Source: a virus
Direction: 5' to 3' (one strand)
DNA: 64,000 bases
Virus record (IMG/VR): IMGVR_UViG_3300036770_004917
Coordinates: 22,044 to 86,043 of that record
In this document: in pieces, positions 5,101 to 49,129 of the stretch
Layout of the letters: every line of letters starts with the position of its first letter
Numbering within the stretch: the first letter of the stretch is position 1
Notes under the pieces: generated by a model
Databases searched by the model: none
Seen by the model: the letters and a program-made list of their open reading frames with translations, nothing else
What the model was told of the DNA's origin: nothing
Position numbers and translations under genes: made by a program

Positions 5101-5442
5101 TTAATCCTGAATGTTTTGGAACATGGTTTTTAGAATCAACTTACCATTGGATGTTTCCCAGAATAGGCCATGTACAGATGGCGGCAGTCGTAAAACATTA
5201 TACTGCAAATAAATGTAGGGAATGAGGTCCCCCTCGAATAGTCGTAGAGACCCATTTGTCATAAGTGATTCTGTGTCGTCGTACGTCATTCGTCTATCTG
5301 CGTATGGGTCTTGTCCTGTTAGTAACTTTCGCACAAATCCAACACATTGGTCAGCGGTATATTTTGAAGTTCCTAATTGTGGGCCGGAATCTCCAAAAAA
5401 ATCATTTATTTGTTTTTTGTATTTTTCATCAGTCATTTTCAT
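5101..5442 (-). CDS. Hypothetical protein, translationally coupled to the 1084-aa zincin protein
   Basis: 113-aa ORF with an ATGA overlap with the upstream stop. Confidence 0.6.
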   Translation of the reverse strand: MKMTDEKYKKQINDFFGDSGPQLGTSKYTADQCVGFVRKLLTGQDPYADRRMTYDDTESLMTNGSLRLFEGDLIPYIYLQYNVLRLPPSVHGLFWETSNGKLILKTMFQNIQD

Positions 5443-14600: not shown

Positions 14601-17600
14601 TCCCGCAACTTTGAAATTTCTGCCGCTTTTGCTGCGCGCGTCTTGTCGGCCGTGACCATTCTTCCAATTCGACCACTGTTATCGACTGGCTGAAGGAGTG
14701 AGCCAGCGTCAGTATTTGTTGACTCGGTGCCAAAGAATGAACTTCCCGATTCCCGGAATGCGGCGCCAACCGACGAAGAGCGGGTCGTCTGGAGTAATCT
14801 TGCTGACGCGTCGCCACTTGCTCCGCGGGTTGTGCGCTGCGGGATTTCGGTTTTGCCTATCTCGGTATCCAGTAAGCGCTTTAGGGCACGCTTTTCGGAA
14901 TCCGCCAAAGAACCGCGCTCTGCTTCCACTGAATCAATTGAATCAGCAAGGTCGCCAAGAACTTCAGACTTTGTCTTTTGGCGACTTGGCATCAAAACAA
15001 CAGTTCCATCAGTATCAACCTTCATGACCTCAAGGGTTCCTGGTGGAATGAGGATTCCGTCAGTGTCTCCATCATGGCCATTTTTGGTATGCATTGCACG
15101 CGTTCCCGCAGGCATCGTAACCATAACTCGCTTAGCAGTTGTTGGGTCTGCAAACTTGAGACCATCAGCAGACTGTCCGTCTATCAGTAGACCGCGAATT
15201 GGTCCACTGTGGTCAATTTTTGCACCAGGGGTTAAGTCTCCATCAAGTTCCATTGCGGCAACAAATGACATATCAGTATCTGTTGTTGAGAGTTCCAGTA
15301 TGTCCAGAGTTGGTATGACCGTATCGCGAAGTTGATTTTCTAACAGTTCGTCCTGGCTCTTTGGGTCTGGTGTGCTCATTGTCCCAGCACCATCGCGCAA
15401 ACGCTGGCGCGCCCTTGCTGATGTATCTATGGCGCTACGGAGGCTCTCAGTATCGCCGCTTACCGCATCACTTACAGTTAGCCACGCAGGCCTCATTTCC
15501 ACTGGCTCATCAGACTCAATGACGTCTTTTTGCTCAGCGTTTAGTTTTTCTATTATTTCATCAATCTTGCGGCGACCAACAAGCGCAGGGTCGGACCTAA
15601 GTGTTGCGCTTTCAATTTCTTCTTGTGTTGGCTTGTAGTTGGGATTGAGTTTCCGCTTTTCCTTCGATGTCATGCCAGGAGTGTCACGAATACTTCCTGG
15701 CTCATAGGGGCGTGAGGTGGCATCAAATCCATCCCTACCACCTACGGCATCCCCCGCATGGTTGGCTATTTCTCGTGACCAGTGGGCCAACTCGTCGTCA
15801 TCAACTTCAACTATGTCGTCATAGCCGCGCGACTTCCTCTTATTGATGGCACTATTGCGAAGTCCCTTTTGCTTTGGCCGCAATGCTGAATCAACGCGAC
15901 GCATATATTTTCCAGGTTGTGGATTAATGCCGCGTGCTTTGTACTTCTCAACCTCCTCGTCGCTAAGTTTGGACTTCCTAGTGTTCACGTCAAGAATCTG
16001 ACGCATGCCCTTAATAGCGAGCCACATGCGGGCCTGCTCATCCGCCGTTAGCGGTTCAGTTTTGGATTTTTCAATAAGTTTCCTGTATTCGCTTTCAAGT
16101 TTTTCGTAACGAGCATCCATTTGCTCTGGAGTCATTTTCCAGTAGGCGTCTTTGGCTTGCCTTATTTCACCAAGTGGGTCATTGGGGTCTGGCCCACCCT
16201 CTTCTGGGCCTAGGCCAAATGCAACATCTACGAAACGACTGATTTCATCGGGGTTTTGTTCAATGGGGAGGTTATGAATACTCTCTGGTTGCCACTGAGT
16301 TTCATCATCAAAGTACATATGGCCCGCAAGGTCCATCCAGCGAAGGTCAACCTGTCTTGGTTTTGCCGCGCCTGCTTCTGGCGCCTCGCCACCCTGTACT
16401 CCATCTCCATAGTTGTTATTAATAACAATATTTATTGGAGCATGAATGTTTACATTTATAACCGTTCCACCATTTCCTGGCGGAGCGGTTGGTGGCCCGG
16501 TATTTGTTGGTACGTCCGGCACTGGCGGTGAGTCTGGCGTAGGGGGAACTAAATCAACTTCTGGAGGAACATCATATGGGATATCTCTGACTTTTTTGGT
16601 ATTGATATTTTCGGGCAAAAACCACGCAATAGAATCATCAACCTCGGGTCCGCCCAGGATTCCAAGTTCACGCTGAGCAAAAACTTCAGCCGTTCCTTCA
16701 ACCAACGCCCGTTGCAATGCCTGGCTAACATCCCCGCCTTCCCGGGCTGCTTTCTCCGCATCAGCCAGTTCACTCTGATATCGTTTTCCGGCGAAAATGT
16801 TAACTAATGATTTCTCAAATCGATGCGCTCCACCTGGTGGGAATTGATACCTATTATCTCCCCTAAACATTAGACTAGAAACAGCCTCGGCCCACTGCTT
16901 ATTTGTCCAGGTTGATGGTGGTTCAATAAAATCAACCAATCCATTTGGCGTATCTATAGTAAACTTTCCGTTTTTTTCGTATATGTCAATGATATTTTGC
17001 TGCACGGCATGGTATTGCATAACATGACCAAACTCGTGAAAAGCAACATGTCGTGCTTTTCCGCGCACTGGGTCAAGCCCAAGTGCTGCTTGTAGGCGTG
17101 CTGCACTGGTGTCATTTGCGTATCCATCAGCGCCAACGATTTCGGCATATAGCATTGCGTCGCTAATATCCTCTAAAGCACTTAGTAATAGTGCTCGTTT
17201 TTGTGCTTCACTGGCAGCGCCTGGAGCATCTATAAATATTGAACCATCATCAGTAATTTTGAACGTGTCTTCATCTACCGCTGCCGCATGCAATGCCATT
17301 CCAAGAGCATTAAATGACATCGGTACTTTGATATCGCCATACTCATCATATTGCGCCACAGTTGAGCCCTCGACTCCAAGGAATTCCTCGTTTGGCGTAA
17401 GGTCGTATGGCATCAAGGCGCGAAGTTCGCCAACTCTTTCTGTTGCATCTGGATATTTGTCTTGCAGGTAGACGTACGATTTGAGAAATTCACGCTGTGC
17501 GGCGTGATGTCTTTCGCGAATTGCCTGAACATACTTTTGGGCTACTTCACGCTCTTTTGGGTCACTGCTTGTCAGGAATGGCTTTACTTCATCCGGGATA

Positions 17601-18790: not shown

Positions 18791-18813
18791 TCCGGGCTCC
18801 AATCCCGACTGTA

Positions 18814-20537: not shown

Positions 20538-23500
20538 CTAATCATTCAGGGCAATCTCTACCTCGTCGCCGTTCTCATTTATCTTAGTAATTGTTCGTGA
20601 GTGAACTGGTTCTGCTGTTCTGTTGATGAATGTGGCCATGGCAGCCTTCGCCATTAGTTCTGCCATTTCGCCAAATAGGGCCATCCTTGCTTCGCCACCC
20701 CGCTCCACCTGTCTGTCTAGCGCAACATAAAGTGCTTCAATAATTTCGTCAATTTCGTCTTGCGTTAAATACAGGGCACCAGCATTGGTTCTCCTGTCGC
20801 TCAATTTCCCGGATTTCTGACGGGTCAATGTCTTCTTCAATAAGTTCAGGGCGGCAGAATGACGCGGGTCATCGGCCTTGCTTATCTCCCTATCAAGCGA
20901 ATTAAGGAGTTCGTTGAATTTCGTACGCTCTGCACGTATTTCTGCCCTGCCTTCCTTGACCGAAGACCGAGTGGAGCGAGTACTTTGCATAACCTCATTT
21001 TTGCGTGCAGCAAAATATGCATCAATGGCACGACCACGGATGCGTGGTACATATCTGGTTTTTGGAACAATGTCCATTTCGGGCATTGAGCGGACAAGGG
21101 GGGCCCCACGCCCTGGTGCCTTGTCAATGAATTCATCAGTCATTAATTCATTGCGCAATTTATTTAGATAATCACGAGTTCCAGATGCCCTATCAATACT
21201 ATTTTGTACATACTTTTTGCCAATTACGGAAGCACGCGGAGCAAATCCATTGGGTTTTCCATCCATCGCGTCAACGACAAAATCACTAGTCAGGTAATCA
21301 TCCAGAATGTCAATTGCGTCATCAATATTTCCGATACCAAAATCAATCCCAGCACCATCAGCATCCGCGAATAATTTCTTGACATCGTCCCATACCTGAG
21401 AGTGCCGATTGTCCTGATATCTGGTTGAATAAACCGAATCAAGTTCACTCTGGTACTCCCCTATGATGCTTCCAATTCCTGAAGCAATTCGCTGCCTGCG
21501 AACCCTGGCAGCCGTTGGGTTGGACGGGGTGCTGACGGGAGAATCCTCACCTCTAGTGGGCGATGGTGCTGTCGCTTTTGGTGGTGCAGTAATGTCTACT
21601 GGCAATTGGATTCCACTGCGAGTCGGGCGGACGGGAGACTGAACTCTTGATGACCGGACAGGAACAGGAGGCAAGTCCAGGTCTTCGTCCTCAAGACCTA
21701 GTTCTCGCCGCTTATCAATGGCATCAAGAAGTTTTTGACTTGAGGCCATAATGTCATCCCATATCAAGTTAAGGTCGTTGTCGGGTATTTCGCTAACTCC
21801 AGTCCTGCGCTTATCTGCTTCAGGCCTTAAGCGGCGCACTACGTCTGCTGCCTGCATGTGGTTTAGGTTGCGGAAATCATTGTAGAAGACACTTCTTGAC
21901 TCATTATCTAGAATATCTCTTGTTTTCATGCCAAGTGATTCCCAAGATTTTGCAAAATCCGGAGTTGCGGCAGTGCCAGAACCGTTGCCGTAAATAACAC
22001 TCTCGTAGTTATCACGACGCTTGAGGTTGTCTTGGACCATATTGAGTGCATCCATAACTTCGCGAGCCTGCTTGATGGCATCGCTTTGTCTCAGGCCCTT
22101 ATCCCCACCACCCTGCACCATGTTCTCTTTAATCCATGACAATTTGTCCAACGGTGCCATATCCGCATAGTCCGACGGTGCCATTTCTGCAAATGGTGTT
22201 CCTGCTTCGTCACCACCCTTTCTTGGCGCCAAAGACCCAACAGCAGAACGTGTTGGTGTGGAGAATTCCCTAATAGCATCCAACGACTTCCATGTTGCTA
22301 TTGTTTTAAATTTCTCGTTAGCAAGTGATTGCGCAACTTTCATATTTGAACCTTGCGCCCAATCAAGAAGTTTTTGGCGACGCTCTTTATTTAGCGAGTA
22401 GGGTGCCCCTGAGTTGAACAGTGAGTTCACGTCAGTTCCGTTTGTCTGAGGGAATTCGGTTGCATCAAATTTTAATTTTGGTGATGATGCTGCATGGTCA
22501 AGCAATGCAGCACTTGCCGTGCCATCACTCATATTCGATGAACGAAGAGCAGTTATACCATCACGAATAAACTCATACTCTGCTGGCGACATACTGAATG
22601 CAGTCTTGAGTCCACCACTCTGTCCACCAGCAATAAGTTTGTCATAGACATCAATCGCCGAAGTGATTTCGCGATTATTGGCAAAACGCTTTCTCAATTC
22701 TGCCAGTTCATCACGAACTATTCCAGCATCATTGTTGTCCAAAATAATGCTAATGGTATTTGATGGCGTTTTTGGAAGAGGACGATACATGGGTGCTATT
22801 CCATCTGGCAAAAGGCGCGCACTCCTAGAATCCTCTAGTGCATCAACGATGTTAATCGCGGCAGCAGCCTCTTGATTCGCAAATAGTTTCTTAGCAATTG
22901 AGTGAGCCCTGATTGGGTCAACGGGAGCAACCTCGTCCCTGGATGATGCCGAATAAGCACCTGCAAGATTCTTTATTAGAGATGTTTCCGTAGAACTTAG
23001 TTTCACTCTCCGGGCATCTCGTTCAAGGAGTTGGGCAAGCCCTGGGACAAGACCGCGACGGCTGCCATCTGGCGATACCGTATAACTGGAATCTTTATCA
23101 AGTTGATTTAGCGATGCGTCAACTGTCTTTCTGCTTTTAAGGAAAGTATCAATAACCTCATCATTCATTCCGCCATAGCGATAAATGCCGCCATTCCTGC
23201 CGATAATGAGTTCATTGCGGTTCCCATCGTATGCGACGAATGAAACATTGGAATTAGCGAACTTGCTTGAGCGACCAGGGAATAATTGTTCCGAATTTCG
23301 CAAATCAGTACCCATTTTGACTGTTGCCTTACTCGTTATCCGAGGGGATGCAACACTCCGAGTTGATGGGGATATCGCCAATACGGCTTGTTCGTCTAGT
23401 TCTGTAGCGGTTGTATTAATGACGGCTTGTTTTGCATCGGCCAGTTTTCTCTTGCGACGAACGGAGAGGATTGCATTTTCGAGTATGTCTGATGCAGATT

Positions 23501-26500
23501 TATTGATGAACGACCTATCTTCATCATCAATGTCTCTTCCATTGATGATTGAGTCAACTTCAAGCATGTCAATGTAGGAGCCAACCTGGTCGTTGCTTGC
23601 TAGTTGATTGAGTTCTTCTGCTAGTTCTGACGCTGAGGTGCGATTCATTCCTACTGGGCGAGACGTGCCACGTGGCCCGGTGTCAAATAATGACCGCTCC
23701 AATGCTGAGTCATATTCAAGAAGTGACAAGACATCCGCCCAGTCCTCTTCGGTAAGTCCAAACCTTTCGGCTGCATCGTTATAGCCTGATGCTTGCTTTT
23801 TCGCTTTTTTGTATGATGCTGAAGTGAGTGCTGCCTGACGCTCTTCGCGAACAAGGTGCTGGGCTGCAGCAAATATTTCATTTACTTCGCGTTCAATAGC
23901 CAATATTGACTCATCAAGAAATGCTGAACGATTTTCCATTTCGGCATTCGGCCATTCATAATTAACGGCATCAAATTGTGCATCTAGTTCTTTCAACTCA
24001 TCTCGTGAGTCATTCAGTTCATCTAGCAATCCACGAACTCTTCCGACTATTGCGTCAGTTGAACCTGCGCGGAAATCCTCTACCGTATCTCTCCATACAG
24101 CGGGTATCCGAGTACGTCCGCTACGGGTACTTGCTGGACGATTGGCATTAAGAAGTTGTTGGTCATCGGGGATAACTGCCGATATGGCATTACCACTCAC
24201 TAGGTCACGAAGGACCAATTTATTAACACCATCTCGCATTCGCCCAACCGAAGCAACCGAATATCTAGCGTCACCCTGTGATGCTAGGGATTGCATGAAG
24301 TTATCGGGGAGAATGTCACCAGGTTTGACATCGCTGCCAAATGATATATAAGACATTGAGCCATCACTATTTTGGGATGACAATGGACGACCGAGCGGCC
24401 TGAGTTCGCCACCGGCTCTCATTGCCGAAAGACCATTTATGTATTGTTCTTTCGCATTGTTGCCTGGGGCGATAGTGCTTCTCGTAATATTGAGCCATTC
24501 CCGAGAAGATGGACCTTCTTTGCGTTTTCCGGGAATCTTGGTTGCCCGGCGCTTTTGCTCCTGTTCTTGCCTGACTTGTTCTGGCGTCAATTTTTTCATG
24601 TCACCAGTAACTTTTTTGTCCCCAGTGACATTCCACTTTTTGCGATTCTTGCCGCGCTTGGAGCGTGTCGATGGGATGTTACTACCTTGTGCTGTATCGT
24701 CGATTTCGTCGCCCATTTGTGTTGCGATACTTTGTCCACGGACACTGCGCGTACCACCATATTCATACCCTTCGCCACGTGGTGTTGGTGCATCTGTTTC
24801 ACCCTCCACTCCACGGATAATGTCACCAATCGCGCTTTTTTCTGAATTTCCGAGAACACCAATGGATAGAGTTTTATCCTTCTTCGGGATTTCCTGAACT
24901 CCGGTGCGTCTAGCAAAATCAATCTCGTCTTTATCACTTATGGAATAAGCAAGAATGTCGGCGCCAGTTTCAGCATAGATACGCTCAATTGCATCTATTT
25001 GTTCTTCGGTAAACCGAACATCGCCAGCCTCGAAGCCAATATATGGCCTTATCTGCTCAAGTACTTTTTCGCCTCTTGAATTTATTTTTTCAGTAATATT
25101 CCCACGACTCATGCGGAATCGGACCACCCCATCGTCGTAGGCGTTAAGGTAGTCGTGTTCGTCTCCGTGCTCACCAATAACTGGATAAAGCGTCCCATCT
25201 GGATACAGCCATGCTCCAAAAAAGTCAGAATTAATAAACTCATCCACGGTCATGAACTTCATCTGTAGCGGTCGTTTTTCCGAACCCAAACGAGCAGAGT
25301 CGTCAGCCTTTGCCCTCATCCGTAGTTCATCACCAATTGCTGCCAATATGTTTGCCGCCCCCTCATCTGGCTTTCCTCTCATATCAACAATCGCTCGTAT
25401 GTCCTGCTGAAGGTCTCTCAGCATTTCTGGCGTCATTGATGGCGAACGCAGTGGATAATCGGCACGACCACTCAGGAATCTAATTTCCCTCAACGTAGCC
25501 CTATTCAACTTCCCGTTGTCTAGTGACTTTGTTATATCGTCAAGGAGTTTGACTAGGGCTGCATTATTAGCGAGGCGTTTTTCTTGCATTTGTTTTGTAA
25601 TTTGCTCACGCCTCTGCTGCATGTCTGCCTTCATGACGGCCAGGGCCCTTTGTTCTCTTGGGGAGATATATGAGCGAGTAGAGCGGGTAGAGGATGACGC
25701 AAGCCCATCCGTGCCAGTCGTTCTGCCACGCATTCTCTTGAACAGTCGGCCGATTCCGCCCGGTTCGCGCTCTGTCAGGGAATGGTCTCCCGAATTGGCA
25801 AAAATCTCTGGAGCAACGAGTCCGAAAGACCGAAGAAGTTTGCCATTTTTATTCATATCCATTATTTCTGACGCACTAAACCAACCGATTTCAGTGTTTT
25901 CCCCATCTCCGATTTTCACATCAGATAGGTCTCGTCTGCCAACTTCGTAGACATGGGTGTCGTATGCCCAATCCGGAGCACGTTGGTCACGGTAGGAATA
26001 AACCGGCAATAGCCCCTCCAAGTCACCGCCAACTTCCTCCCTAAATTCCGTCACCGCTGTCTCCATCGGAATTTCAGAACTGTCCTTATCCTTATGGACA
26101 CCACCAGGGAATGACCATTGTCCGCCCCCAGAACTCATCCATGGGGCACGTCTGGCTAGTAGGTATTCATAATCTCCGGATAGCCCCCTACGGCGTCGCA
26201 CCAAGGCGCCAGATGCGCCATACCGTCCATTGAATTTTTGGCCAGTAATGGAGAAGTAGTACCCCTCCCCAGTCTCCTGATTTGAGCCGCCACCTCTTGG
26301 TGCAAAGAATGGATATGCGGGTGGCTTTAGTTTGCCTGCACGAAGAAGGGAAACTTCCCTGCTGGATATTCTGTCCGCATAATAGACACCATCATCACTC
26401 TGCAGAATTTTGTATTTTTCCCACGGGCTTGCCGTCTTTTCTTCTTCTATTTCCGCAAGACCCTCGGCAATATCTTCATCTCGCGATAATTCACCTCGAC

Positions 26501-29500
26501 GGCGAGCAACTCTATTGCGGCGGGGGGATTGCTCATCGTTTGCTCGCATCGTTCGCGAGCGAGTACTAGGCATTCCCGTTGATGTCCGCGCATCCCTGTC
26601 CGAACTTAGTCTCGCCCATTCTGGGATGAAATCTGGTTTTTCTACGAAGTCTTCCGTTCCAAGGAATTCCTTTATTTCTTTGGCAGAAGGGGTCCTGGAT
26701 GTTAGGTCAAACTCACCGATGGGGAACAATGCCGGAATGGTATCGCCGCCATAATCACGGCGTTTGCGGCTGACTGATACTGCTGGAGCATCAGAAAGTT
26801 GCACTATGTTAGCAATGGCGTCAATTTGTTTGTCATTTAATCCTATTGCATCGATATTTACGTTTCCGGGGGGACCGAAAAGTAGGCGAACGAGGCCATC
26901 ATCGAATGCATCGCTGTATTCATACTCGGCATCATGTGACATAACCGGATAGATGCGGCCATCAGGGTAAATCCAGGCGCCATGCCAATGCGAGTTAGCA
27001 AAATCTTTTGCAGTAATAAAGTCGTTTGCAAGTACTCTTTCTTCGCCACCAAGTCTTTTTGGCCTATCTCCTATCGCGCGTTCAATCTGGCGAACAATTC
27101 TTTCTTTTTCTGGAGAGGGCTTAACTAGCGCATTCGTAAGAGAAAGAAGTGCTTTATTGGTTCTATCTTCGACAAAACCATAAAGTGGGCGAACGTTTTG
27201 CCTCATTGATGAATTGACGGCTTTGAGCACGTACTCCACGTACCCCCGTTCGCCATCTACCGTCCCTATGGGGCCAATTATTTCTCGCAATTCTTCTGTG
27301 CTCAGGTTTTCCACTGCGTCGCGAATCTGTTGCACTGCATTACGCAATTCGGCATTACTCTCCAGCATGGAGCGAGAATGTTCGTCCCCCAATTTTGCGA
27401 CTTTTGTCATTCTTTCCCGCGAACGTTCCCTATTTTCTTGGACTTTCCGCGTCTTTTCGTCTTCTGCGCTAGTTGTCGTGCTGCGCGTTGACAGGCTGTA
27501 CCTGGCGCTACGAGTACTTCCAGAATTTTCTTTGTTCCACTCGTTGGCAACTCTCTCAAAATATCCAGTTGCTGCATTCAGTGCGTCTGTGTCTGATTCT
27601 GTTCCGGTCCGTGCACTGCTCGCGAATTCAATAGATGCAATAGGTTCAACTTTTTCAAAAACCTGATATTCGCGTTCACTGCGGGGGAAACCAATTGGCC
27701 CTGCGTACATGGTGGCTTGCGACTTAGGAACCGCCGCCAAATAGACTCGGCTTGCTCCTTCATCATTTCTGTCACGAGCGTAACCGATACCAATTCTTAT
27801 ATCTGCTGGATAGTAAGAAAGATGTTCGCGGCCAGATTTTGCGTAATCATGGAATTGTTTATTATCGGCAAGCCATTGTTCTCTGGCTGCAATCGTCTTT
27901 TTTAATCGTTCAATCTGTTCAGTGTTTACACCAACTTTTTCAAATTCTTCAAGTTCGCTACGAGTTATTTCAAGGTCTTTTTCCGCCTGCTCGTAAGCGC
28001 GAATTAGCAGATTGCGACCAGCCTCATTTGAGCGCTTAGAATTTTTGGCACCACCGATAATTTCGGATGCCTCGCCAAAACCGGCAGTGAATTGGGGGTC
28101 CAGTACGCCGCCATCAAGTACGGGGACACCAGTATGCGTCAGGAATAAGACATCTTCGTTTTCAAAATCACCATACTGCTGACCGGGGTTCTCTGACTCG
28201 ACAGCACCAGTGATGAGGGCGCGACCTCTTTCGGCCAAGCGAACGAATTCTGGGTGGTCACGGAGGTTGTCCATGTCCACGTTTCGTGGAGTTTCTCCGC
28301 GCTCAAACTGCTCAATAACCCTAAGACGCTCGACAGCATCTTCTCGTAGTTCTATTAAATTATTTCTATAACGATTAAAGGCCTCTCGTTGCTCTTCTGG
28401 CGTTTGAACCTCACTAAGTTCTTCTTTGGTGAGATTGGTCATGCTTCCACGACTGCGCCTACCACTAACGCGTGGTTCCGCTACATCAAAATCTTTCCCT
28501 AGCCAATCGCCTGTTTCTTCCCAATGGGCAATTGCTTTTTCAATGGAATCTAGTTCTTTCCCCAATTGGGAGTAATAGCCCTCAAGCGCCGATTTCCCAA
28601 AAATCCTGCGATATTCAGGGTCTTCCTGGCGTAGTGATGTTCGTTTCCGTGTTGACCGGAGGCCATCAATGGATACGCCATTGTCGTTCCTCTTGGTAAC
28701 CCTGGGAGCATCAACTGAATCAAGCAACTCATTTCTAATTAGAATTCCGTCAAGAGAATCCCCCGCCAGGCGGGCAAGCATGTCATCTGATGCTTCGGTC
28801 AATGGGGTCTGGCGCACAGAACGACTTGACCTACTGGAGCGAGTACTTGGTGGGTCAAGTTTGTCAAGCAACTCGTCTATAGGGCCGTCGTAGTCTCTGA
28901 TTGTTTCTTCAAAGCGTCCCCTTGCGCGTTCTGGTTTGTCTGGCGAGGCAACAATACCAAGCCAACGTGCAGCAATCTCCATTAGGTTTGACCGAATAAA
29001 GACTTCCCTATCTTCATCGGTGAGGCTCTCTAGGCCCGGTAATTCTCGTAATTTATTCCAGAAATCCTTATCGCGAGCAAGCGAAATCAGGGCAAGGATG
29101 TTTCCCCACTCACTATGTCTGTCAAATGTATTTCCTAGAGCGAAATGACCCATGAGGTCATGGAGCATTGCAAGTGGTGAGACTAAGTAATTGCTTAGTT
29201 CGCCATGGACCTCCGGCACTGCATGTGGGTCTGACATGAGTTGTAGATATCCATGGATAAAAAAGTCATTATCTATCAGGCGCTTGGCAACTTTTGCACG
29301 TTCATTGCGCGGCACTTTTTCCAATTCCGGAATAATATAATGCTTAAGAAGCATCGCCGCTATCTCGTTAGTGCGTACACTTAATGCCACATTTACGGAT
29401 GGCAACTGTTCTTTTAGATGTTCTCTGTATTTTTTGTTAAAAAATTCATGGAAGGGGAGTTCTTCTCCATCATCGAAGGGGCGCGCAAGCCGAGGTTTTT

Positions 29501-30506
29501 TCCTACCTTCAGGGTCTTTGATAAAAATGGAATCAAAGAATTTATGCCAGCGTCCATACTTCTTGCGTGGCTCTACCTCGTCAAAAATTGACAGAATCGT
29601 CTCGCTGTCTGGAATCTCCGTATTGTGGTAATCCCTATTGTCAGGGAGCAAACGGCGCAAGACCGTATTCGTTGGCATTCTCAGCGAGATTGTTCCATCG
29701 TCGTGTACTCGGAGTTCTGACCCCTCGATGATGTCATCAATGGTCATGTCTATATCTGGGTGCGACCCAAAACCATCAATGAGTTTTTCCCGCCTAAGAA
29801 TGCCGGAACGTTCACGACGACCCATTGATTGCCAGTCGTCTCGCATGGCTTGGAGATTCATTATCAAGTTGGAAACTTGATTTTTAATGCGTTTCTTTTG
29901 GTCATCCGTCCAATCGCCGGACTCCATGAGGCGCTTCTCTAATCCATTACGAATATCCACCCAGAACTGACTGTCGCTAATCGCCTCGTCGCCGTCTGTT
30001 CCTTTTTTGGGCCTCTGTGTCGGCTCAAGGATGTCTCCTAGGGGGATTCGTTCTCTGATGCTTCGTGTACTTCGTACTACGCGACCGACATTCGGACCCG
30101 GGCGCACGGACGTATCAATTGCGCCATCTACTTCGGCGTTGCTTGCAATACCAACGCTTGAGTCTTTATCAATTCTTGAAACAATGCTCTGCAGTTTTTC
30201 CTGGCTAAATGAGATATCGGTATTGCCAGCACGCCGCTTGCGCTCAATCTCTTCAGAGTCGCCCTGGGTAAGTTTTGCAACAGACTTTGCAATACTGCGT
30301 GGAACGATGAATCTAGGAATAATGGGTCTTTCAAGGGGTAATCCCTCAAAAACAATCCCATCGTTATCGGCGTCTACTCGTCCTGTGACGTCAACGAACG
30401 ACATCCCAGGCGGCGCAGCACGAAGGCCACCACCAATACGCTGACCGAGTTTTCCGCCCAGTGCTTTAGATTCGGCGTCTAGCCCTAACTCAGCAAAGCC
30501 GGGCAC
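20538..30506 (-). CDS. Giant polyvalent-type protein (3322 aa), probably made as a -1 frameshift fusion to the prohead protease; HDxxGH peptidase-like, ART-like, NUDIX, duplicated GAWxYPDG and KTSC-like domains
   Basis: HDLMGHF...FDRHSE (~29110-29165); LTHTG...HLSYY...VYLAAVP...EREYQV (~27660-28145); NUDIX box WSFPGG...ETAVTEFREEVG (~26025-26120); GAWIYPDG and GAWLYPDG; SNVSFVAYDGNRNELII...GGIYRY (~23175-23255). The GTG start has no good RBS. Confidence 0.8.
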   Translation of the reverse strand: MPGFAELGLDAESKALGGKLGQRIGGGLRAAPPGMSFVDVTGRVDADNDGIVFEGLPLERPIIPRFIVPRSIAKSVAKLTQGDSEEIERKRRAGNTDISFSQEKLQSIVSRIDKDSSVGIASNAEVDGAIDTSVRPGPNVGRVVRSTRSIRERIPLGDILEPTQRPKKGTDGDEAISDSQFWVDIRNGLEKRLMESGDWTDDQKKRIKNQVSNLIMNLQAMRDDWQSMGRRERSGILRREKLIDGFGSHPDIDMTIDDIIEGSELRVHDDGTISLRMPTNTVLRRLLPDNRDYHNTEIPDSETILSIFDEVEPRKKYGRWHKFFDSIFIKDPEGRKKPRLARPFDDGEELPFHEFFNKKYREHLKEQLPSVNVALSVRTNEIAAMLLKHYIIPELEKVPRNERAKVAKRLIDNDFFIHGYLQLMSDPHAVPEVHGELSNYLVSPLAMLHDLMGHFALGNTFDRHSEWGNILALISLARDKDFWNKLRELPGLESLTDEDREVFIRSNLMEIAARWLGIVASPDKPERARGRFEETIRDYDGPIDELLDKLDPPSTRSSRSSRSVRQTPLTEASDDMLARLAGDSLDGILIRNELLDSVDAPRVTKRNDNGVSIDGLRSTRKRTSLRQEDPEYRRIFGKSALEGYYSQLGKELDSIEKAIAHWEETGDWLGKDFDVAEPRVSGRRSRGSMTNLTKEELSEVQTPEEQREAFNRYRNNLIELREDAVERLRVIEQFERGETPRNVDMDNLRDHPEFVRLAERGRALITGAVESENPGQQYGDFENEDVLFLTHTGVPVLDGGVLDPQFTAGFGEASEIIGGAKNSKRSNEAGRNLLIRAYEQAEKDLEITRSELEEFEKVGVNTEQIERLKKTIAAREQWLADNKQFHDYAKSGREHLSYYPADIRIGIGYARDRNDEGASRVYLAAVPKSQATMYAGPIGFPRSEREYQVFEKVEPIASIEFASSARTGTESDTDALNAATGYFERVANEWNKENSGSTRSARYSLSTRSTTTSAEDEKTRKVQENRERSRERMTKVAKLGDEHSRSMLESNAELRNAVQQIRDAVENLSTEELREIIGPIGTVDGERGYVEYVLKAVNSSMRQNVRPLYGFVEDRTNKALLSLTNALVKPSPEKERIVRQIERAIGDRPKRLGGEERVLANDFITAKDFANSHWHGAWIYPDGRIYPVMSHDAEYEYSDAFDDGLVRLLFGPPGNVNIDAIGLNDKQIDAIANIVQLSDAPAVSVSRKRRDYGGDTIPALFPIGEFDLTSRTPSAKEIKEFLGTEDFVEKPDFIPEWARLSSDRDARTSTGMPSTRSRTMRANDEQSPRRNRVARRRGELSRDEDIAEGLAEIEEEKTASPWEKYKILQSDDGVYYADRISSREVSLLRAGKLKPPAYPFFAPRGGGSNQETGEGYYFSITGQKFNGRYGASGALVRRRRGLSGDYEYLLARRAPWMSSGGGQWSFPGGVHKDKDSSEIPMETAVTEFREEVGGDLEGLLPVYSYRDQRAPDWAYDTHVYEVGRRDLSDVKIGDGENTEIGWFSASEIMDMNKNGKLLRSFGLVAPEIFANSGDHSLTEREPGGIGRLFKRMRGRTTGTDGLASSSTRSTRSYISPREQRALAVMKADMQQRREQITKQMQEKRLANNAALVKLLDDITKSLDNGKLNRATLREIRFLSGRADYPLRSPSMTPEMLRDLQQDIRAIVDMRGKPDEGAANILAAIGDELRMRAKADDSARLGSEKRPLQMKFMTVDEFINSDFFGAWLYPDGTLYPVIGEHGDEHDYLNAYDDGVVRFRMSRGNITEKINSRGEKVLEQIRPYIGFEAGDVRFTEEQIDAIERIYAETGADILAYSISDKDEIDFARRTGVQEIPKKDKTLSIGVLGNSEKSAIGDIIRGVEGETDAPTPRGEGYEYGGTRSVRGQSIATQMGDEIDDTAQGSNIPSTRSKRGKNRKKWNVTGDKKVTGDMKKLTPEQVRQEQEQKRRATKIPGKRKEGPSSREWLNITRSTIAPGNNAKEQYINGLSAMRAGGELRPLGRPLSSQNSDGSMSYISFGSDVKPGDILPDNFMQSLASQGDARYSVASVGRMRDGVNKLVLRDLVSGNAISAVIPDDQQLLNANRPASTRSGRTRIPAVWRDTVEDFRAGSTDAIVGRVRGLLDELNDSRDELKELDAQFDAVNYEWPNAEMENRSAFLDESILAIEREVNEIFAAAQHLVREERQAALTSASYKKAKKQASGYNDAAERFGLTEEDWADVLSLLEYDSALERSLFDTGPRGTSRPVGMNRTSASELAEELNQLASNDQVGSYIDMLEVDSIINGRDIDDEDRSFINKSASDILENAILSVRRKRKLADAKQAVINTTATELDEQAVLAISPSTRSVASPRITSKATVKMGTDLRNSEQLFPGRSSKFANSNVSFVAYDGNRNELIIGRNGGIYRYGGMNDEVIDTFLKSRKTVDASLNQLDKDSSYTVSPDGSRRGLVPGLAQLLERDARRVKLSSTETSLIKNLAGAYSASSRDEVAPVDPIRAHSIAKKLFANQEAAAAINIVDALEDSRSARLLPDGIAPMYRPLPKTPSNTISIILDNNDAGIVRDELAELRKRFANNREITSAIDVYDKLIAGGQSGGLKTAFSMSPAEYEFIRDGITALRSSNMSDGTASAALLDHAASSPKLKFDATEFPQTNGTDVNSLFNSGAPYSLNKERRQKLLDWAQGSNMKVAQSLANEKFKTIATWKSLDAIREFSTPTRSAVGSLAPRKGGDEAGTPFAEMAPSDYADMAPLDKLSWIKENMVQGGGDKGLRQSDAIKQAREVMDALNMVQDNLKRRDNYESVIYGNGSGTAATPDFAKSWESLGMKTRDILDNESRSVFYNDFRNLNHMQAADVVRRLRPEADKRRTGVSEIPDNDLNLIWDDIMASSQKLLDAIDKRRELGLEDEDLDLPPVPVRSSRVQSPVRPTRSGIQLPVDITAPPKATAPSPTRGEDSPVSTPSNPTAARVRRQRIASGIGSIIGEYQSELDSVYSTRYQDNRHSQVWDDVKKLFADADGAGIDFGIGNIDDAIDILDDYLTSDFVVDAMDGKPNGFAPRASVIGKKYVQNSIDRASGTRDYLNKLRNELMTDEFIDKAPGRGAPLVRSMPEMDIVPKTRYVPRIRGRAIDAYFAARKNEVMQSTRSTRSSVKEGRAEIRAERTKFNELLNSLDREISKADDPRHSAALNLLKKTLTRQKSGKLSDRRTNAGALYLTQDEIDEIIEALYVALDRQVERGGEARMALFGEMAELMAKAAMATFINRTAEPVHSRTITKINENGDEVEIALND

Positions 30507-30518
30507 TATTATTTTTTT
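30458..30518 (-). promoter_or_regulatory. Putative programmed -1 ribosomal frameshift signal (A AAA AAA plus downstream stem-loop)
   Basis: Minus strand reads GGT TCA AAA AAA TAA TAG; the -1 frame reads AAA AAA ATA ATA GTG CCC into the 3322-aa ORF. A GCCCGGCTT...GAGTTAGGGC hairpin can start 7 nt after the heptamer. Confidence 0.7.
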
Positions 30519-31891
30519 GAACCACCAGCCTGGCCATAGAGAACATCGTCAATTGTGAGGGCGATATTCTCTAGTGCGGTGATTGCTTCCTGTGTAAGGC
30601 CGTTGGAGATATGAATTCCCTGGTGGTCAACCTCAGCGTCGAGACGGTGATAATCAATTACTGGGTCAAGCAAACTCTTTACATGGAATGCTTCTTCCGG
30701 CGTGCATAGGACGGTAAAAACCTCTTCTTCTACTGGGTCCTGTTTTGAGCCGGTTAAACCCTGAAGTAGGTCAATTGCGTATTGCAGTTTCTCTGCGGGC
30801 AGTGCCGAACCGCTTGTTGCCACATCAATGATAATGTCTGCCGCTTCATCCATTGCCTCATCTAGAGACTTGCCGCCAGAAGACAGAAACATCATTCCTG
30901 TCGGCATGCCAGAACCTGGCTTGACACTCATTGGCATTGATGGCATTTGTGATGGAACGACAACTGGTGCTGTTGGCATTGTGCTCTGCTGATTACGCAT
31001 GCCAATTTTTTCTGGCTTACCAAACATATATTCGCCTGTCTCTTCCTCGCGATGGTAAGACAGGCGATAGGTGACTGAGTTGCCATTTCCGGCATCACGA
31101 TTGAAAGTAACTGAATTCTCCGTTGCGTGAATGATGTCCAGGGGCAATCGCGACCTGCTCATTAGTTCCATGGCAAGTGCATTGCGTGCCTCATCGGGGA
31201 GTACTCGCGCTTCACCTTCACCAAAGATGTCCTCGCGCTCCTGTTGGCGCTGTGGCGCTATTGCGGATACCTGACGCACGACTTGGGGTAGAACTGGCCG
31301 ACCTACAATTGCGGCCCCACTAGGGATTCCGGGCATATGATGCATGCGAGGCATTGGATTCCCGCACTTTTCTGCTTCGTCGCTCTTGACGGAGATGGTG
31401 CCAGTAAGTTGGTTAGCGCCATGAAGAACTGGACTAACCTCATACAATTCAACTTCATGAAGAATATTGGCCTGTGTACCGGGGTCAAACGTAGCATTGA
31501 GCGTCTTGTACCCAATACTCCACTCTTGCTCCTGGCCAAAGAATGCAACACTAGCAAAGGCTTCGCGACCCTTTTCGGTGGCCAGGTTGAATTGAACCTT
31601 CGCAAAAAGTCCACCCACGCCAGCCTGCTTCATCTTCATTGGTAAACGAGGGTCGCTTGCAGGAACCTCGTAAATTTCAAGAACCTTGCCGATGGGGTCA
31701 TTCCAACTATGCCCCCAGACCACCCGAGGCTTGCGGCGCTTGAGGCTTTCAGTAAAGGCGCCAGTAGCGACAACATCGCCGACCGAGTCCTTGTTGCCAA
31801 CTGCGGCCACAAAGCACTCAACAATGCCTTGTGCCTCGTCAATGTTTATCTGGCCATTCAGTGCCTTGAAACTAATTTGGTCTGTAGACAT
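30509..31891 (-). CDS. HK97-family prohead (maturation) protease with long C-terminal extension
   Basis: VGNKDSVGDVV..GAF..SL, WGHSWNDPIG (His), EWSIGY (Ser) and EVELYEVSPVLHGAN motifs; immediately downstream of the portal. Confidence 0.92.
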   Translation of the reverse strand: MSTDQISFKALNGQINIDEAQGIVECFVAAVGNKDSVGDVVATGAFTESLKRRKPRVVWGHSWNDPIGKVLEIYEVPASDPRLPMKMKQAGVGGLFAKVQFNLATEKGREAFASVAFFGQEQEWSIGYKTLNATFDPGTQANILHEVELYEVSPVLHGANQLTGTISVKSDEAEKCGNPMPRMHHMPGIPSGAAIVGRPVLPQVVRQVSAIAPQRQQEREDIFGEGEARVLPDEARNALAMELMSRSRLPLDIIHATENSVTFNRDAGNGNSVTYRLSYHREEETGEYMFGKPEKIGMRNQQSTMPTAPVVVPSQMPSMPMSVKPGSGMPTGMMFLSSGGKSLDEAMDEAADIIIDVATSGSALPAEKLQYAIDLLQGLTGSKQDPVEEEVFTVLCTPEEAFHVKSLLDPVIDYHRLDAEVDHQGIHISNGLTQEAITALENIALTIDDVLYGQAGGSKK

Positions 31892-31999: not shown

Positions 32000-34051
32000 C
32001 TACGGGCGACTAAATTCCCAAGCCCGTCGCGCCTCGCCGGAAGCAACCTTTGGTCGGGTGTTGGCTATTGCGTCAATGAAAATTGACGTAATGGAAGAGC
32101 GTAGGGCGGTATTCCGTGCGGATTCTTCCTGAATCCCATATGAGTTGTAGATTGCCGAACCAACTTGTGAATGAATCCCGTCAATGATTTCTTTGATTCG
32201 TGTCATTTGTGATTCAATGTTCACAACAGTGTCCTGTGCAGCGGGAATTCTGTATCCATCAGACTTTTCGGAGTAAAGTGCTTGGGAATCACGAATTATT
32301 GTTGATAAAACCGGCTTGATGTCTTCGTCAATTTGCTTATGCCATACATCCAGGGATAGGACGGAATCAACATCCAGTGAGCCCTGCATTAGTGACTTTC
32401 TGGATTTCTGGCCGCCAACCTTCTCTAACACCACGCGCTGCATGCGCTCCAGGACTCGCTCTATTCCTCTATCGAGGATTTCTGTCCATCTTGAAAGTGA
32501 TGTTTCATTGGCGTCGTCCTTGGTGGATATCTCATGGCTTGTGGCGCTCATCATGCCCATGCCCTGAGGCATGCCTCCCTGCATTGGAGGCTGTGGGGCA
32601 GCAGCACCCATCGACTCTATGGCCATGGCACCAGCCATCGTGGTTGGGTCTGGTGGTGCTCCGGCAGCCATATCAGGCGGCATTGCTGCCATATCGCCAC
32701 CAGGCATTCCTGGAGGCATACCCGGCGCTCCAGGGGGCATTCCTGGTGCTCCTGGTGGCATTCCAGGACCGCCCGCTCCTGGCATTGGCATTCCGGGCTG
32801 TGCAGGCGCCATTGGCTTCTTTGTATTGGCGATTGGGGTGAGGTTGGGATTCATGAGGAGGCTGTCGGCTAAATCTGCCTCAACATCCTTGCGACCAGTT
32901 CCAGTTCTATACTCGTTGACAGAAATCAATCCAGCGCGCAATTCCTCTAGCAGGTATCTCTCTACTTCCTGTTTTGCAATAATTAGAACAGGGACACTGG
33001 ATGTATCAAAATCAACGTAGTGCTCGGGGTCAAGTTCATCAAAGGCGCGCGCAAGAACTTCGAGGTGTGGAGACATTGTCTCGTTCCAGAAAACACGAAT
33101 TTCTTCACTGGCATTCGAAAACGTTCTGCCTGCGGCATTACCAATTACTGATTCTGGAACGCCAAATGAAGAAAGGATTTCCTCTTTAGTAATTTGGCGC
33201 ATCTGGATATAGGCGGCATCTCGTGGATTCGATGAGGTATCAACGAAGTCGACGCCATCATCGGCAGAAATAACCGTCGTTTGACCAACGCGACCTAAAT
33301 TACCTCTAAACCTATTGCGTAGTTCGTCTTTATCATCATCATCAATTTCGCCACGCAAAACAAGCAGGCCACCGGGTCGCCCGTCATTCAGTAAGTAGTT
33401 TCTGTTATATAACTTGGCAAGGTTCTCAATTTCAATGGCAATGCCTGCCGACTCCATCGGAGTGAGCGAAAGATACGGGTCAATTGGATGCGGCCTACGA
33501 ATCCAGCAGACATCTTCTGGCTTCATAATAACCTTGTCGCCATTAGGCATTAAAACTTCGTACCCAGACACAAATGTCTTGGGGTCTGGGATTGGGGATG
33601 TTGATTGCGGGGGAAGGAGGTTTAGGCCTATGACTCCACCGTCGCGCCCGCGAACTTTCTCAATGAATACACCACGTGTGCCGAGCAGTAATTGCGATGA
33701 AACCCTATATCTGAATATAAATGAATTTTCACCAATATTTGATTTGGTATTTAGGATGTCTAGCAAACTACTATTCTTCGCTGCCTTACCCTTGACAATC
33801 ATTCCTTCGGGAGAATTGTCTTTACGCAAAATTATTGGCAACCGTGCCTGATTCCCGGCAATCGCATCAATGCAGCGCGCTACCCACGTAACCTTCTGCA
33901 TGCCCTCGCGGTATGCCCGTTCAATATCCCATGGGTCGCGGTAGCCCTTGCCAACGTAGGACGAGTTTTGCGCGACTGTTCCACCAGGTCCAAATGCAGA
34001 TTTCTGCCCCTGGTTGTCAAGCGACTTATTGTCGGTTTTGTTCCAAGCCAT
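32000..34051 (-). CDS. Portal protein (HK97-like) with Pro/Gly/Met-rich linker and C-terminal extension
   Basis: WVARCIDAIA...RLP, LLLGTRG...GLNLLPP, NYLLNDGRPGGLL, ILSSFGVPESVIG...TFSNASE and GLISVNEYR are typical portal motifs. Confidence 0.92.
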   Translation of the reverse strand: MAWNKTDNKSLDNQGQKSAFGPGGTVAQNSSYVGKGYRDPWDIERAYREGMQKVTWVARCIDAIAGNQARLPIILRKDNSPEGMIVKGKAAKNSSLLDILNTKSNIGENSFIFRYRVSSQLLLGTRGVFIEKVRGRDGGVIGLNLLPPQSTSPIPDPKTFVSGYEVLMPNGDKVIMKPEDVCWIRRPHPIDPYLSLTPMESAGIAIEIENLAKLYNRNYLLNDGRPGGLLVLRGEIDDDDKDELRNRFRGNLGRVGQTTVISADDGVDFVDTSSNPRDAAYIQMRQITKEEILSSFGVPESVIGNAAGRTFSNASEEIRVFWNETMSPHLEVLARAFDELDPEHYVDFDTSSVPVLIIAKQEVERYLLEELRAGLISVNEYRTGTGRKDVEADLADSLLMNPNLTPIANTKKPMAPAQPGMPMPGAGGPGMPPGAPGMPPGAPGMPPGMPGGDMAAMPPDMAAGAPPDPTTMAGAMAIESMGAAAPQPPMQGGMPQGMGMMSATSHEISTKDDANETSLSRWTEILDRGIERVLERMQRVVLEKVGGQKSRKSLMQGSLDVDSVLSLDVWHKQIDEDIKPVLSTIIRDSQALYSEKSDGYRIPAAQDTVVNIESQMTRIKEIIDGIHSQVGSAIYNSYGIQEESARNTALRSSITSIFIDAIANTRPKVASGEARRAWEFSRP
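32700..32800 (-). repeat. Low-complexity PGMPPGA tandem repeats within the portal
   Basis: PGMPMPGAGGPGMPPGAPGMPPGAPGMPPGMPGG, with a ~21-nt period. Confidence 0.8.
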
Positions 34052-34339: not shown

Positions 34340-35644
34340 ATGACTGACTGGAATAAAGTTCTCCAATTTTTGGAGCCAAAGCAACCATCGTTCTGCCCGG
34401 AAGAACCGTCACTCACGCAAAAAGTTTTCCTCCGAACATATTCGCTAGAAGCATTATTTGGCGGAGCAGCAGGTGGTGGGAAATCGTCAGCATTATTAAT
34501 GTCAGCGTTGCAATATGTAGATGTTCCTGGCTATTCTGCAATTATTTTCCGTCGTACATATGCCGACTTGGCCCTTCCTGGAGCCATCATGGACCGGTTC
34601 ATTAATTGGATGTCCACCGTCGATGATGTTCGCTGGAACGCCAATAATTACACCGCAATATTCCCTTCTGGGGCACGACTTTCCTTTGGTTACCTAAATA
34701 ACCAACAGGACTTCTTGCGCTATAAGGGTGCCGAATTCCAGTTTATCGGCATGGACGAGGTGACCGAAATCAGGGAATCGGACTACCGATATATGTTCTC
34801 TCGTCTACGTCGCCCGGCTTCAGGCCCACTGGCCCAAGTCCCCCTCAGGATGCGCTCAGCCTGCAACCCTGCACCAAACTGGGTGCGCCAGAGATTCATC
34901 GTAGAGGGGCAAAGCGAGGGTCGCATTTTCGTACCATCAAAATTGTCCGATAACCCCGGCATTGACGCCGACTCTTATCGCACGGCACTGCAGGCACTGG
35001 ACCCACTTGAGCGTCGCCGCCTAGAAGAGGGCGACTGGTGGGCCACTACCCTCGGGTCGATGTTCCAACGAGAGTCAATTGTGATTATCGACCAGACCGA
35101 TATCCCCAAAATTACATCATCGGCCCGTGCCGTCAGATTCTGGGACCTTGCCGCAACGGAGCCTTCTCACTCAAATCCCAACCCCGACTGGACCGTTGGT
35201 ACATTAATGTTATTCGATGGCGGAATTGCGTATGTCCTTGACGTACGTCGTGCGAGGGTACGAGGCGAAAAGGTGGAGGAATTGATTGCTCAGACCGCCT
35301 ACGAGGATGGGCATGCCGTGGCAATTCGCATGGAGCAAGAACCCGGGTCATCGGGCAAGGGGCTAGTTGACCAATATGCTCGGTACGTTCTTCCGGGATT
35401 TGATTTTATGGGAATCAGGTCAACGGGCGACAAGGTAACCAGGGCGCGACCATTTGCGGCTGCCGTGGCCAACGGCAATGTTAGGTGCGTCCGTGGCCCC
35501 TGGCTCACCGACTGGCTTGATGAGTTATCCACCTTTCCTGAAGCGTGCGACCACGACGACCAGGTAGACTCTGCCGTCGGTGCATTTACACATCTTGCTG
35601 GTTTGGGGTTGCCCCAACGCAAGCGAGTGGGTATCATCGTCTGA
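34340..35644 (+). CDS. terL: Terminase large subunit
   Basis: Walker A LFGGAAGGGKS, Walker B FIGMDEVT, coupling motif ACNP, nuclease motifs FWDLA and HDDQVD. Confidence 0.95.
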   Translation: MTDWNKVLQFLEPKQPSFCPEEPSLTQKVFLRTYSLEALFGGAAGGGKSSALLMSALQYVDVPGYSAIIFRRTYADLALPGAIMDRFINWMSTVDDVRWNANNYTAIFPSGARLSFGYLNNQQDFLRYKGAEFQFIGMDEVTEIRESDYRYMFSRLRRPASGPLAQVPLRMRSACNPAPNWVRQRFIVEGQSEGRIFVPSKLSDNPGIDADSYRTALQALDPLERRRLEEGDWWATTLGSMFQRESIVIIDQTDIPKITSSARAVRFWDLAATEPSHSNPNPDWTVGTLMLFDGGIAYVLDVRRARVRGEKVEELIAQTAYEDGHAVAIRMEQEPGSSGKGLVDQYARYVLPGFDFMGIRSTGDKVTRARPFAAAVANGNVRCVRGPWLTDWLDELSTFPEACDHDDQVDSAVGAFTHLAGLGLPQRKRVGIIV

Positions 35645-49053: not shown

Positions 49054-49129
49054 TGGCGAGTAATTCAGTGGATAGAATAGCGGTTTCCTAAACCGTCTGC
49101 CGCAGGTTCGAATCCTGCCTCGCCAGCCA
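49054..49129 (+). tRNA. tRNA-Arg(CCU) with encoded CCA
   Basis: TGGCGAG/CTCGCCA-G-CCA; D-arm ATTC..GAAT; anticodon arm GCGGT-TTCCTAA-ACCGT; T-arm GCAGG-TTCGAAT-CCTGC. Confidence 0.95.

Follow-up and report, generated by a model that had tools for sequence, protein, structure and literature searches.

A probable programmed -1 frameshift at the border of a prohead protease gene and a giant, putative internal-cargo gene in a tailed phage and its relatives

The border between the gene of a prohead (head-maturation) protease and that of a giant, putative internal-cargo protein in an uncultured tailed phage is, as judged from sequence comparison, very likely a site of real programmed recoding, be it ribosomal or transcriptional, and probably one of programmed -1 ribosomal frameshifting. 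Both genes, like the portal gene, lie on the minus strand of the 64,000-nucleotide stretch of DNA analysed here ("the window"; positions 22,044 to 86,043 of IMG/VR virus record IMGVR_UViG_3300036770_004917), which holds part of an 86-kb record with a completeness estimate of 57%. The protease open reading frame (ORF) comprises 460 aa (31891..30509, minus strand), and the giant cargo ORF, 3322 codons long when counted from a GTG at 30506 (20538..30506, minus strand), is placed in the -1 frame relative to it. The upstream product was assigned to the S78 family by domain match, as its residues 18-171 match Pfam Peptidase_S78 (PF04586) with an E-value of 9.4e-14 and 52.3 bits, above the curated cut-off of 21, and as the portal gene adjoins it directly upstream (34051..32000, minus strand; Pfam Phage_portal, PF04860). 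It also matches PHROG 80 (E 5.4e-29). The S78 domain is followed by a conserved C-terminal part of about 290 aa, which is possibly scaffold-like.

The junction and the products expected from it

The protease gene ends with GGT GGT TCA AAA AAA TAA TAG. This sequence contains the heptamer A_AAA_AAA (30512..30518, minus strand), which stands in the X_XXY_YYZ phase of the protease frame and which we propose as the -1 shift site. Directly 3' of it lies the 0-frame stop codon TAA (30509..30511, minus strand), with a second stop, TAG, at 30506-30508, and 3 nt upstream of it lies the G-rich, Shine-Dalgarno-like (SD-like) word GGTGG (30522..30526, minus strand), which codes for Gly-Gly too. Read in the -1 frame, the run continues as AAA AAA ATA ATA GTG CCC into the giant ORF (Ile-Ile-Val...). 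This frame is open for merely 37 nt upstream of the 0-frame stop, so that any shift is confined to a short stretch holding the heptamer, and the fusion product would be 460 + 2 + 3322 = 3784 aa long. When the coordinates were re-read, the A7 run, the upstream GGTGG, the double stop and the -1 reading were all found as described in an initial annotation made from the letters of this DNA, and its size for the trans-frame protein, about 3784 aa, was right as well.

The same annotation had recognized that a run of eight A would turn the two genes into one continuous ORF. Independent assemblies read seven: Logan contigs from three DNA runs belonging to three studies (X2, X4 and X12) cross 30512-30518 without an inserted or missing letter, the X4 contig representing a junction variant like that of locus L003. 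These are assembled contigs, in which minor variants of the A run would be invisible.

A hairpin with a 9-bp stem, one bulge and a 4-nt loop is predicted to begin 7 nt after the heptamer (30482..30504, minus strand). When the 45 nt that follow the heptamer are folded, this structure, GCCCGGCTT/GAGTT-A-GGGC, has the lowest energy (-10.5 kcal/mol), and for a 60-nt piece the lowest energy is that of an alternative pairing, GCCCGG/CTGGGC; both had been proposed in the initial annotation, and both were recovered as predicted folds. No intrinsic terminator was found at the hairpin, promoter-like matches were at a level that is not meaningful (1 against 0.6 expected), and Rfam gave no match between 30300 and 30700 at E-values up to 1.

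The giant ORF has no convincing start signal of its own, as had been supposed. The only SD-like word before GTG 30506 is GGTG at -20, with none within 14 nt, and AGGA, GGAG, GAGG or AAGG stands at -14 to -8 in 13 of the 22 ORFs of the window, including the protease, whose ATG is preceded by AGGAG at 9 nt. In relatives the position of this GTG is taken by GTG, TTG, CTG (L088), ACG (L011/L025 and L086-L089) or GCG (L013 group); CTG, ACG or GCG, none of which is a start codon, stands there in 6 of the 13 distinct junctions that are complete. In the L013 group, whose sequences were read by eye, ATG, GTG and TTG are absent from the stretch that begins at the -1 stop upstream and reaches at least as far as the K-G-L-G motif of the cargo. 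Independent initiation at the GTG can thus not be general. Moreover, the variability of the three codon positions after the hairpin, taken in the -1 phase, is 0.27, 0.20 and 0.48; third positions vary most, which fits translation in the -1 frame beyond the hairpin.

We propose the following course of events. Most ribosomes would stop at the TAA whose 5' base is at 30511 and release the free 460-aa protease (that the free form is the majority product is an assumption of ours). A fraction would slip one base back on A_AAA_AAA, where both Lys tRNAs can re-pair perfectly. The hairpin that begins 7 nt further on would probably promote this, and GGTGG, as a stimulator, and the neighbouring stop may contribute. 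The slipped ribosomes would then read the 3322-codon ORF and make the 3784-aa protease-cargo fusion. Prohead proteases co-assemble into procapsids, and a cargo tethered to such a protease would therefore be carried in. With the protease part built into the prohead, the cargo would enter in a ratio that depends on the slip frequency, and the protease might later free it and cut it into pieces, candidate sites being a K-A-L-G motif and 17 TRS motifs described below.

Junction layouts among relatives

Scans with the window protease and the proteases of two relatives over viral and metagenome contigs yielded about 200 loci, and 204 loci, the window included, were classified by their junction; some contigs occur in both collections. 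Twenty-seven loci (14 distinct junctions, 17 distinct proteases, and at least three contigs that sit in both collections) share the layout of the window, that is, a short protease ORF followed by a giant ORF in the -1 frame. With A runs shorter than 9, every one of the 27 has the in-phase heptamer, the run being A7 in 13 of the 14 distinct junctions and A8 in the remaining one (L012). The expectation in the initial annotation that homologous protease genes would keep both the heptamer and the -1 phase was in this way borne out. The codon before the heptamer varies (TCA, CAA, CGA, CCA, GGA) but always ends in A, and the X_XXY_YYZ phase is constant. Protein clusters P0017-P0021 are short protease forms that end in L-K-K, S-K-K or P-K-K, and the codon before their two lysines presumably ends in A, too.

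The 0-frame stop is not at a constant distance from the run and comes 0, 1, 4 or 7 codons after it, but the heptamer, GGTGG and the -1 relation do not change; within the window clade this stop follows the run directly, after one further codon (TTC TGA, TAC TGA) or after four (TAC AAG CGC CCT TAG). Protease identity to the window falls to 59% within that clade, and despite this GGTGG, the A7 run and the GCCC that comes 7 nt later are invariant, GGTGG being present in all 11 aligned junctions. The word also occurs in all but one of the heptamer-bearing junctions of other clades, and in L106 it abuts the heptamer directly. A FastTree phylogeny of 103 distinct protease sequences (local support values; an arbitrary root and hence no direction of change) places the 16 members of the window's frameshift clade on one branch (support 98). 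Its sister comprises the L018/L148 group, in frame and with the heptamer, together with L134/L135, which initiate the cargo separately, and L137/138/142, which are plain fusions. On this tree the shift-to-continue layout must have arisen at least twice, or at least three times when two loci with A9 runs are counted.

Loci L200 (2682-2731) and L203, with 45% protease identity to the window, have the shift-to-continue layout as well. Their junction reads GGTGGT CGA AAA AAA, a 6-bp GC hairpin lies 6 nt on, the 0-frame stop comes 7 codons later, and the -1 ORF has 575 codons; on the tree they stand among clades that are in frame and bear the heptamer.

In other relatives the two genes form a single ORF. 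A homologue of the N-terminus of the giant ORF is found in the protease frame in nine loci (the L018 group and L026, with proteases 54-59% identical), and the identity between the two amounts to 53-59% over about residues 14-130. The trans-frame product of the window, taken in the 0 frame up to the two lysines and in the -1 frame thereafter, aligns unbroken with these single-ORF proteins, through the linker and into the conserved block. This colinearity argues that the fused protein is a homologous, functional state, one which, by the reading frames of its genes, the window clade would attain only via a change of frame.

The heptamer is retained in many of such single-ORF genes. It was found in 33 loci with one continuous ORF and a -1 stop close after it; L046 and L166, in which the heptamer lies elsewhere in the protein, were set aside. 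The remaining 31 loci (8 distinct junctions in at least four places of the tree) keep it after the same G-rich word, and in all of them the -1 frame reads exactly one further codon after the run and then a stop (AGG TGA, AGA TAG, AGG TAG, AGT TAG, ACG TAA). This is the arrangement of dnaX, in which normal decoding would give the long fusion and a -1 slip would give a truncated, free protease. The in-frame heptamer loci and the window clade would accordingly bear one and the same switch with opposite polarity. Apart from eleven loci with longer A runs, described below, the other loci are in frame without such a heptamer (112), short without a heptamer (4) or located on contigs that end before the junction (17).

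As regards RNA structure, seven of the eight in-frame heptamer junctions have a GC-rich hairpin 5-6 nt after the run (-13.8 to -17.1 kcal/mol, among the most stable 5% of windows of the locus concerned); L106 has none. The arms of the stem vary by clade, yet they stay complementary: GGGGCG/CGCCCC, GCGCGC/GCGCGC, GCGCGG/CCGCGC and, in L200, GCGCCC/GGGCGC. The stems of the L172, L192, L202 and L200 clades rest on single-sequence folds and a reading of the arms, as a MAFFT/RNAalifold alignment of four junctions misaligned them. In the window clade, the outer GCCC/GGGC pairs are the same in each of the 11 sequences, and the share of paired cells is 86.9%, a percentage reached by 9 of 500 shuffles in a covariation control.

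Two further groups depart from these layouts. In the L118-L131 clade (e.g. L123:4038-4090, L125 and L119; 540-aa-type proteases), the run at the junction is A9, A10 or A11 in eleven loci. Two of these, with A9, can continue only by a -1 change and have their 0-frame stop 4 codons after the run; the other nine, with A10 or A11, have both parts in one frame, and a stop closes their -1 frame 3-5 codons further on. These long runs look like a case of transcriptional slippage or of homopolymer length variation. In the L134-136 clade (52-56% protease identity; L134:6388-11404), there is no heptamer, and the giant ORF has its own AAGGG-N6-ATG, with a leader of about 20 residues between this ATG and the K-A-[IL]-G block. 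As far as these genes can be read, slip site and start signal are mutually exclusive, in that junctions with the slip site have no start signal and those with a start signal have no slip site. The downstream ORF of the window belongs to the former, with no initiation signal of its own and with homologous in-frame fusions elsewhere.

Weighing the alternatives

The two products could also arise if RNA polymerase slipped on the A run and added one A to some transcripts. We consider this unlikely, but it is the alternative that survives best, since the proteins would be identical and the comparative data do not discriminate on this account. Polymerase slippage is described as efficient on 9 A or T in bacteria and as used by Thermus dnaX (PMC5009743, in its available text). 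The L118-L131 loci agree with it, as they have A9-A11 at the same junction, with A9 in the -1 layout and A10/A11 in frame, just as expected for slippage, and so does the A8 of L012. On the other hand, runs at the 14 junctions of the window layout never exceed 8 and are thus under the reported efficient length, a homopolymer of about 9 or more A or T being found in L118-L131 only. In addition, the X_XXY_YYZ phase, which is relevant to a ribosome and not to a polymerase, is fixed in every lineage, and the conserved structure is located 5-7 nt 3' of the run, where a ribosome would meet it. It is for the A7 run of nearly all junctions, the fixed phase, the position of the structure and the dnaX-like design of three signals that a ribosomal slip is favoured.

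An improbable alternative is that no recoding takes place and that two separate proteins are made, the giant ORF starting at GTG 30506 by reinitiation or at an internal ATG, M35 (30404). M35 is conserved, the window subclade has a GTG or TTG 5 nt after the stop, and the L134-136 clade does express its cargo separately. However, L088, L011, L025 and the L013 group have no start codon at that position, and the GTG lacks an SD word within 14 nt. From the heptamer to M35 the amino-acid sequence is conserved, and it can be aligned both with in-frame fusions and with the L134-136 clade, which starts its cargo separately and upstream of K-A-[IL]-G. Separate starts would also leave the invariant in-phase heptamer and the mirror-image layout of the -1 stop unexplained. 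Neither M35 nor reinitiation at the GTG was therefore retained as a general mechanism, given the relatives in which the start is missing and the upstream residues that are colinear with in-frame fusions.

Finally, homopolymers are error-prone and the majority of relatives are in-frame fusions, but a sequencing or assembly error in a truly continuous gene (A8 or A5) is hardly credible and was rejected, as 26 further loci, from many samples, show the A7/-1 layout, with 14 distinct junctions and moved 0-frame stops, and as three independent runs give A7. The double stop, which had been held against such an error, is in itself a weak argument, and the rejection is better made by these comparative data.

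Several observations weigh against a programmed ribosomal frameshift, or at least against some of its parts. The hairpin of the window is moderately stable, with 18% of control windows from the same locus equally stable. Among the 11 window-clade sequences no compensatory change was found, that is, no pair altered on both sides, so the hairpin remains a prediction; the L013 group, with its weak local fold, and L106 are without a convincing local hairpin. The SD-like stimulator of dnaX sits about 10 nt upstream of its heptamer, and GGTGG, with a gap of 3 nt, does not have this spacing. The distances of the dnaX signals are described as important (PMC5389563, available text). As GGTGG also encodes a conserved Gly-Gly, its conservation is possibly at the protein level. 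The contigs of the one RNA run covered, X20, span 30304-30476 only and so fall short of the A run. No relatives of the protease, and with them no pointer to the host, were found in the genome contig collection (genome_contigs). Moreover, a cargo can evidently work unfused, as in the L134-136 clade, and in the window subclade termination-reinitiation at the codon 5 nt after the stop could add independently started cargo.

A programmed -1 frameshift in the window clade and its mirror image in the in-frame loci might be parts of a wider scheme, which we put forward tentatively and to which we assign slightly less than an even chance. One slip signal would serve the whole family as a flippable switch of stoichiometry, every lineage that bears it making both free protease and tethered cargo, with the protease-scaffold as a general, Gag-Pol-like vehicle for effector polyproteins. 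The slip frequency may in this case be near one half, as in dnaX. At such an efficiency a flip of polarity would barely alter the ratio of the products, and this could explain why flips have occurred repeatedly. If this scheme holds, effector polyproteins of several thousand residues would be dragged into the prohead and later cut at K-A-L-G and TRS.

The cargo, its neighbourhood and known systems

The cargo starts with a conserved module (residues 14-64; 30315..30467, minus strand) composed of K-A-L-G, a Gly-rich stretch, DxDxDG and RP-I-I-P. It is kept across the frameshift, in-frame and separately initiated clades, and K-[AG]-[LI]-[GS] is kept in every clade aligned. The module may be a tag for head targeting or processing, and a cut at K|ALG (ESK|ALG), just after the junction, is plausible. 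It has no Pfam match, a PDB sequence search with the first 140 aa gave nothing below E 0.6, and tblastn of the first 135 aa against 50,697 phage records gave no match, so that the tag is absent from the cultured phages among those records. Further into the giant protein, TRS occurs 17 times, often doubled, against 1.2 expected (2000 shuffles, maximum 6), and not at all in the protease; these motifs are likely processing sites between modules. The sole Pfam match within the 3322 aa is a NUDIX domain at residues 1445-1553.

The module recurs in two more large ORFs of the window, both times in the form K-[AK]-L-G ... DxDxDG ... RP-[FI]-IP and behind 140-200 N-terminal residues. One copy lies at about 8040-8330 (minus strand; near 8192) in the 1084-aa ORF at 5439-8693, and the other at about 1650-1830 (minus strand) in the ORF at 1-2424, where it covers about residues 200-260. 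This recurrence fits a shared targeting or processing unit with a removable leader. A match to DGDGDG is also present in a Lys-rich small ORF near 43209 (minus strand).

In the window, the large terminase gene (34340-35644, plus strand; PHROG 979) lies near the portal gene. An HK97-type major capsid gene (PF05065, E 8.5e-51) was found outside the window, about 47 kb downstream of the protease gene (G000:C1:4514-5335, minus strand). The protease-capsid neighbourhood is thus split by a long block of giant ORFs, of 3322, 522, 3372, 1084, 211, 681 and 808+ aa. The 522-, 1084- and 681-aa ORFs have no match in PHROGs or Pfam, and in the same two databases the 3372-aa and 211-aa ORFs each matched one PHROG of unknown function and nothing else. 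The 3372-aa ORF (8684-18802, minus strand), the second giant one, is listed with a TTG start that lacks an SD word; at its other end, the stop region runs into the start of the following ORF (8693). The single tRNA gene of the window is that of tRNA-Arg (anticodon CCT; 49054-49129, plus strand), and no tRNA-Lys is encoded in it.

The class of mechanism is a textbook one. The junction resembles E. coli dnaX, which makes tau and gamma, in its A-rich X_XXY_YYZ heptamer read by tRNA-Lys, its upstream SD-like word and its predicted downstream hairpin (PMC5389563), and the in-frame clades L018, L148, L172, L202 and L106 share with dnaX the logic of a shift into a stop that gives a truncated product. 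It differs from dnaX in that the proposed shift of the window extends the product, the heptamer is A_AAA_AAA and not A_AAA_AAG, GGTGG is at 3 nt, and the genes are those of a phage protease and a virion cargo. A reversed dnaX layout has also been predicted in some bacteria (PMC5009743). Another parallel is that of phage lambda, where some of the gpG, a morphogenesis protein, is lengthened to gpGT by a -1 shift close to the end of its gene, into a next ORF without a start of its own; this fixes a molar ratio that assembly requires (PMC5009743). Unlike there, the extension here would comprise 3324 residues and would be expected inside the head, and the layout flips between clades. In lambda, the slippery site is G_GGA_AAG, and the G/GT products are small and absent from virions.

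By analogy, the proposed system is also like Gag-Pol of retroviruses and totiviruses, in which a structural protein is fused to enzymes by a -1 shift, a set fraction is packaged, and release is by a protease. Those are eukaryotic RNA viruses with pseudoknot stimulators. In the window, by contrast, the protease itself would be the carrier, and what it carries would be a polyvalent protein, putatively of several enzymes, in a tailed phage. The cargo resembles the polyvalent virion proteins described by Iyer et al. (2017, PMC5512222), which are very large, multi-domain, encoded beside portal and terminase genes, and predicted to be packaged and processed. In our case NUDIX is the one Pfam domain found, the gene lies between the protease and capsid genes, the carrier would be an S78 protease, and the link would be by recoding. 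Where the available text of that paper mentions fusions, the partner is a MuF or a portal domain, and its main text contains "frameshift" not once and "prohead" once.

Proteases joined in frame to head proteins have been described in actinophages, without a frameshift in the text available; in Microbacterium phages these are MuF-protease and protease-scaffold-capsid fusions (PMC7302621). We also noted gp27 of Gordonia phage DalanDe (L001; ON755184.1, 22424-27325), a 1633-aa "capsid maturation protease" with S78 near its C-terminus, encoded directly before the major capsid gene. This is a cultured phage, and its cargo and protease are fused in frame with the order reversed. An alternation of frameshift and fusion across relatives, similar to that seen here, is known from MSTV1-like viruses, most of which add an Ig-like domain to the major capsid protein by a -1 shift, with one member directly fused (PMC11375127, available text). 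There, unlike here, the major capsid protein gains a small decoration domain, and the slippery site is A_AAG_GAA. A protease-to-cargo frameshift is not reported in the literature covered, that is, in available texts including PMC5512222, PMC7302621, PMC7230728, PMC11375127 and PMC5009743, with supplements and subscription journals outside that coverage; neither "prohead" nor "head protease" nor "scaffolding" occurs in the available text of the last of these, a recoding review of 2016. On this basis, recoding between a prohead protease and a cargo gene would be new.

For annotation, the consequence would be that the 3322-aa ORF is to be joined to the protease by a -1 shift and not given a GTG start, and dozens of metagenomic contigs would call for the same treatment. 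Conserved recoding sites known from tailed phages are few, hitherto mainly those of tail chaperones and capsid decoration, and a new and well-populated gene pair would join them. With frameshift-to-extend, frameshift-to-stop, plain fusion and separate gene all present among close relatives, the family offers a natural comparative experiment on the evolution of recoding signals. Ultimately, the finding would tie recoding to the question of how very large effector proteins enter phage heads in defined numbers.

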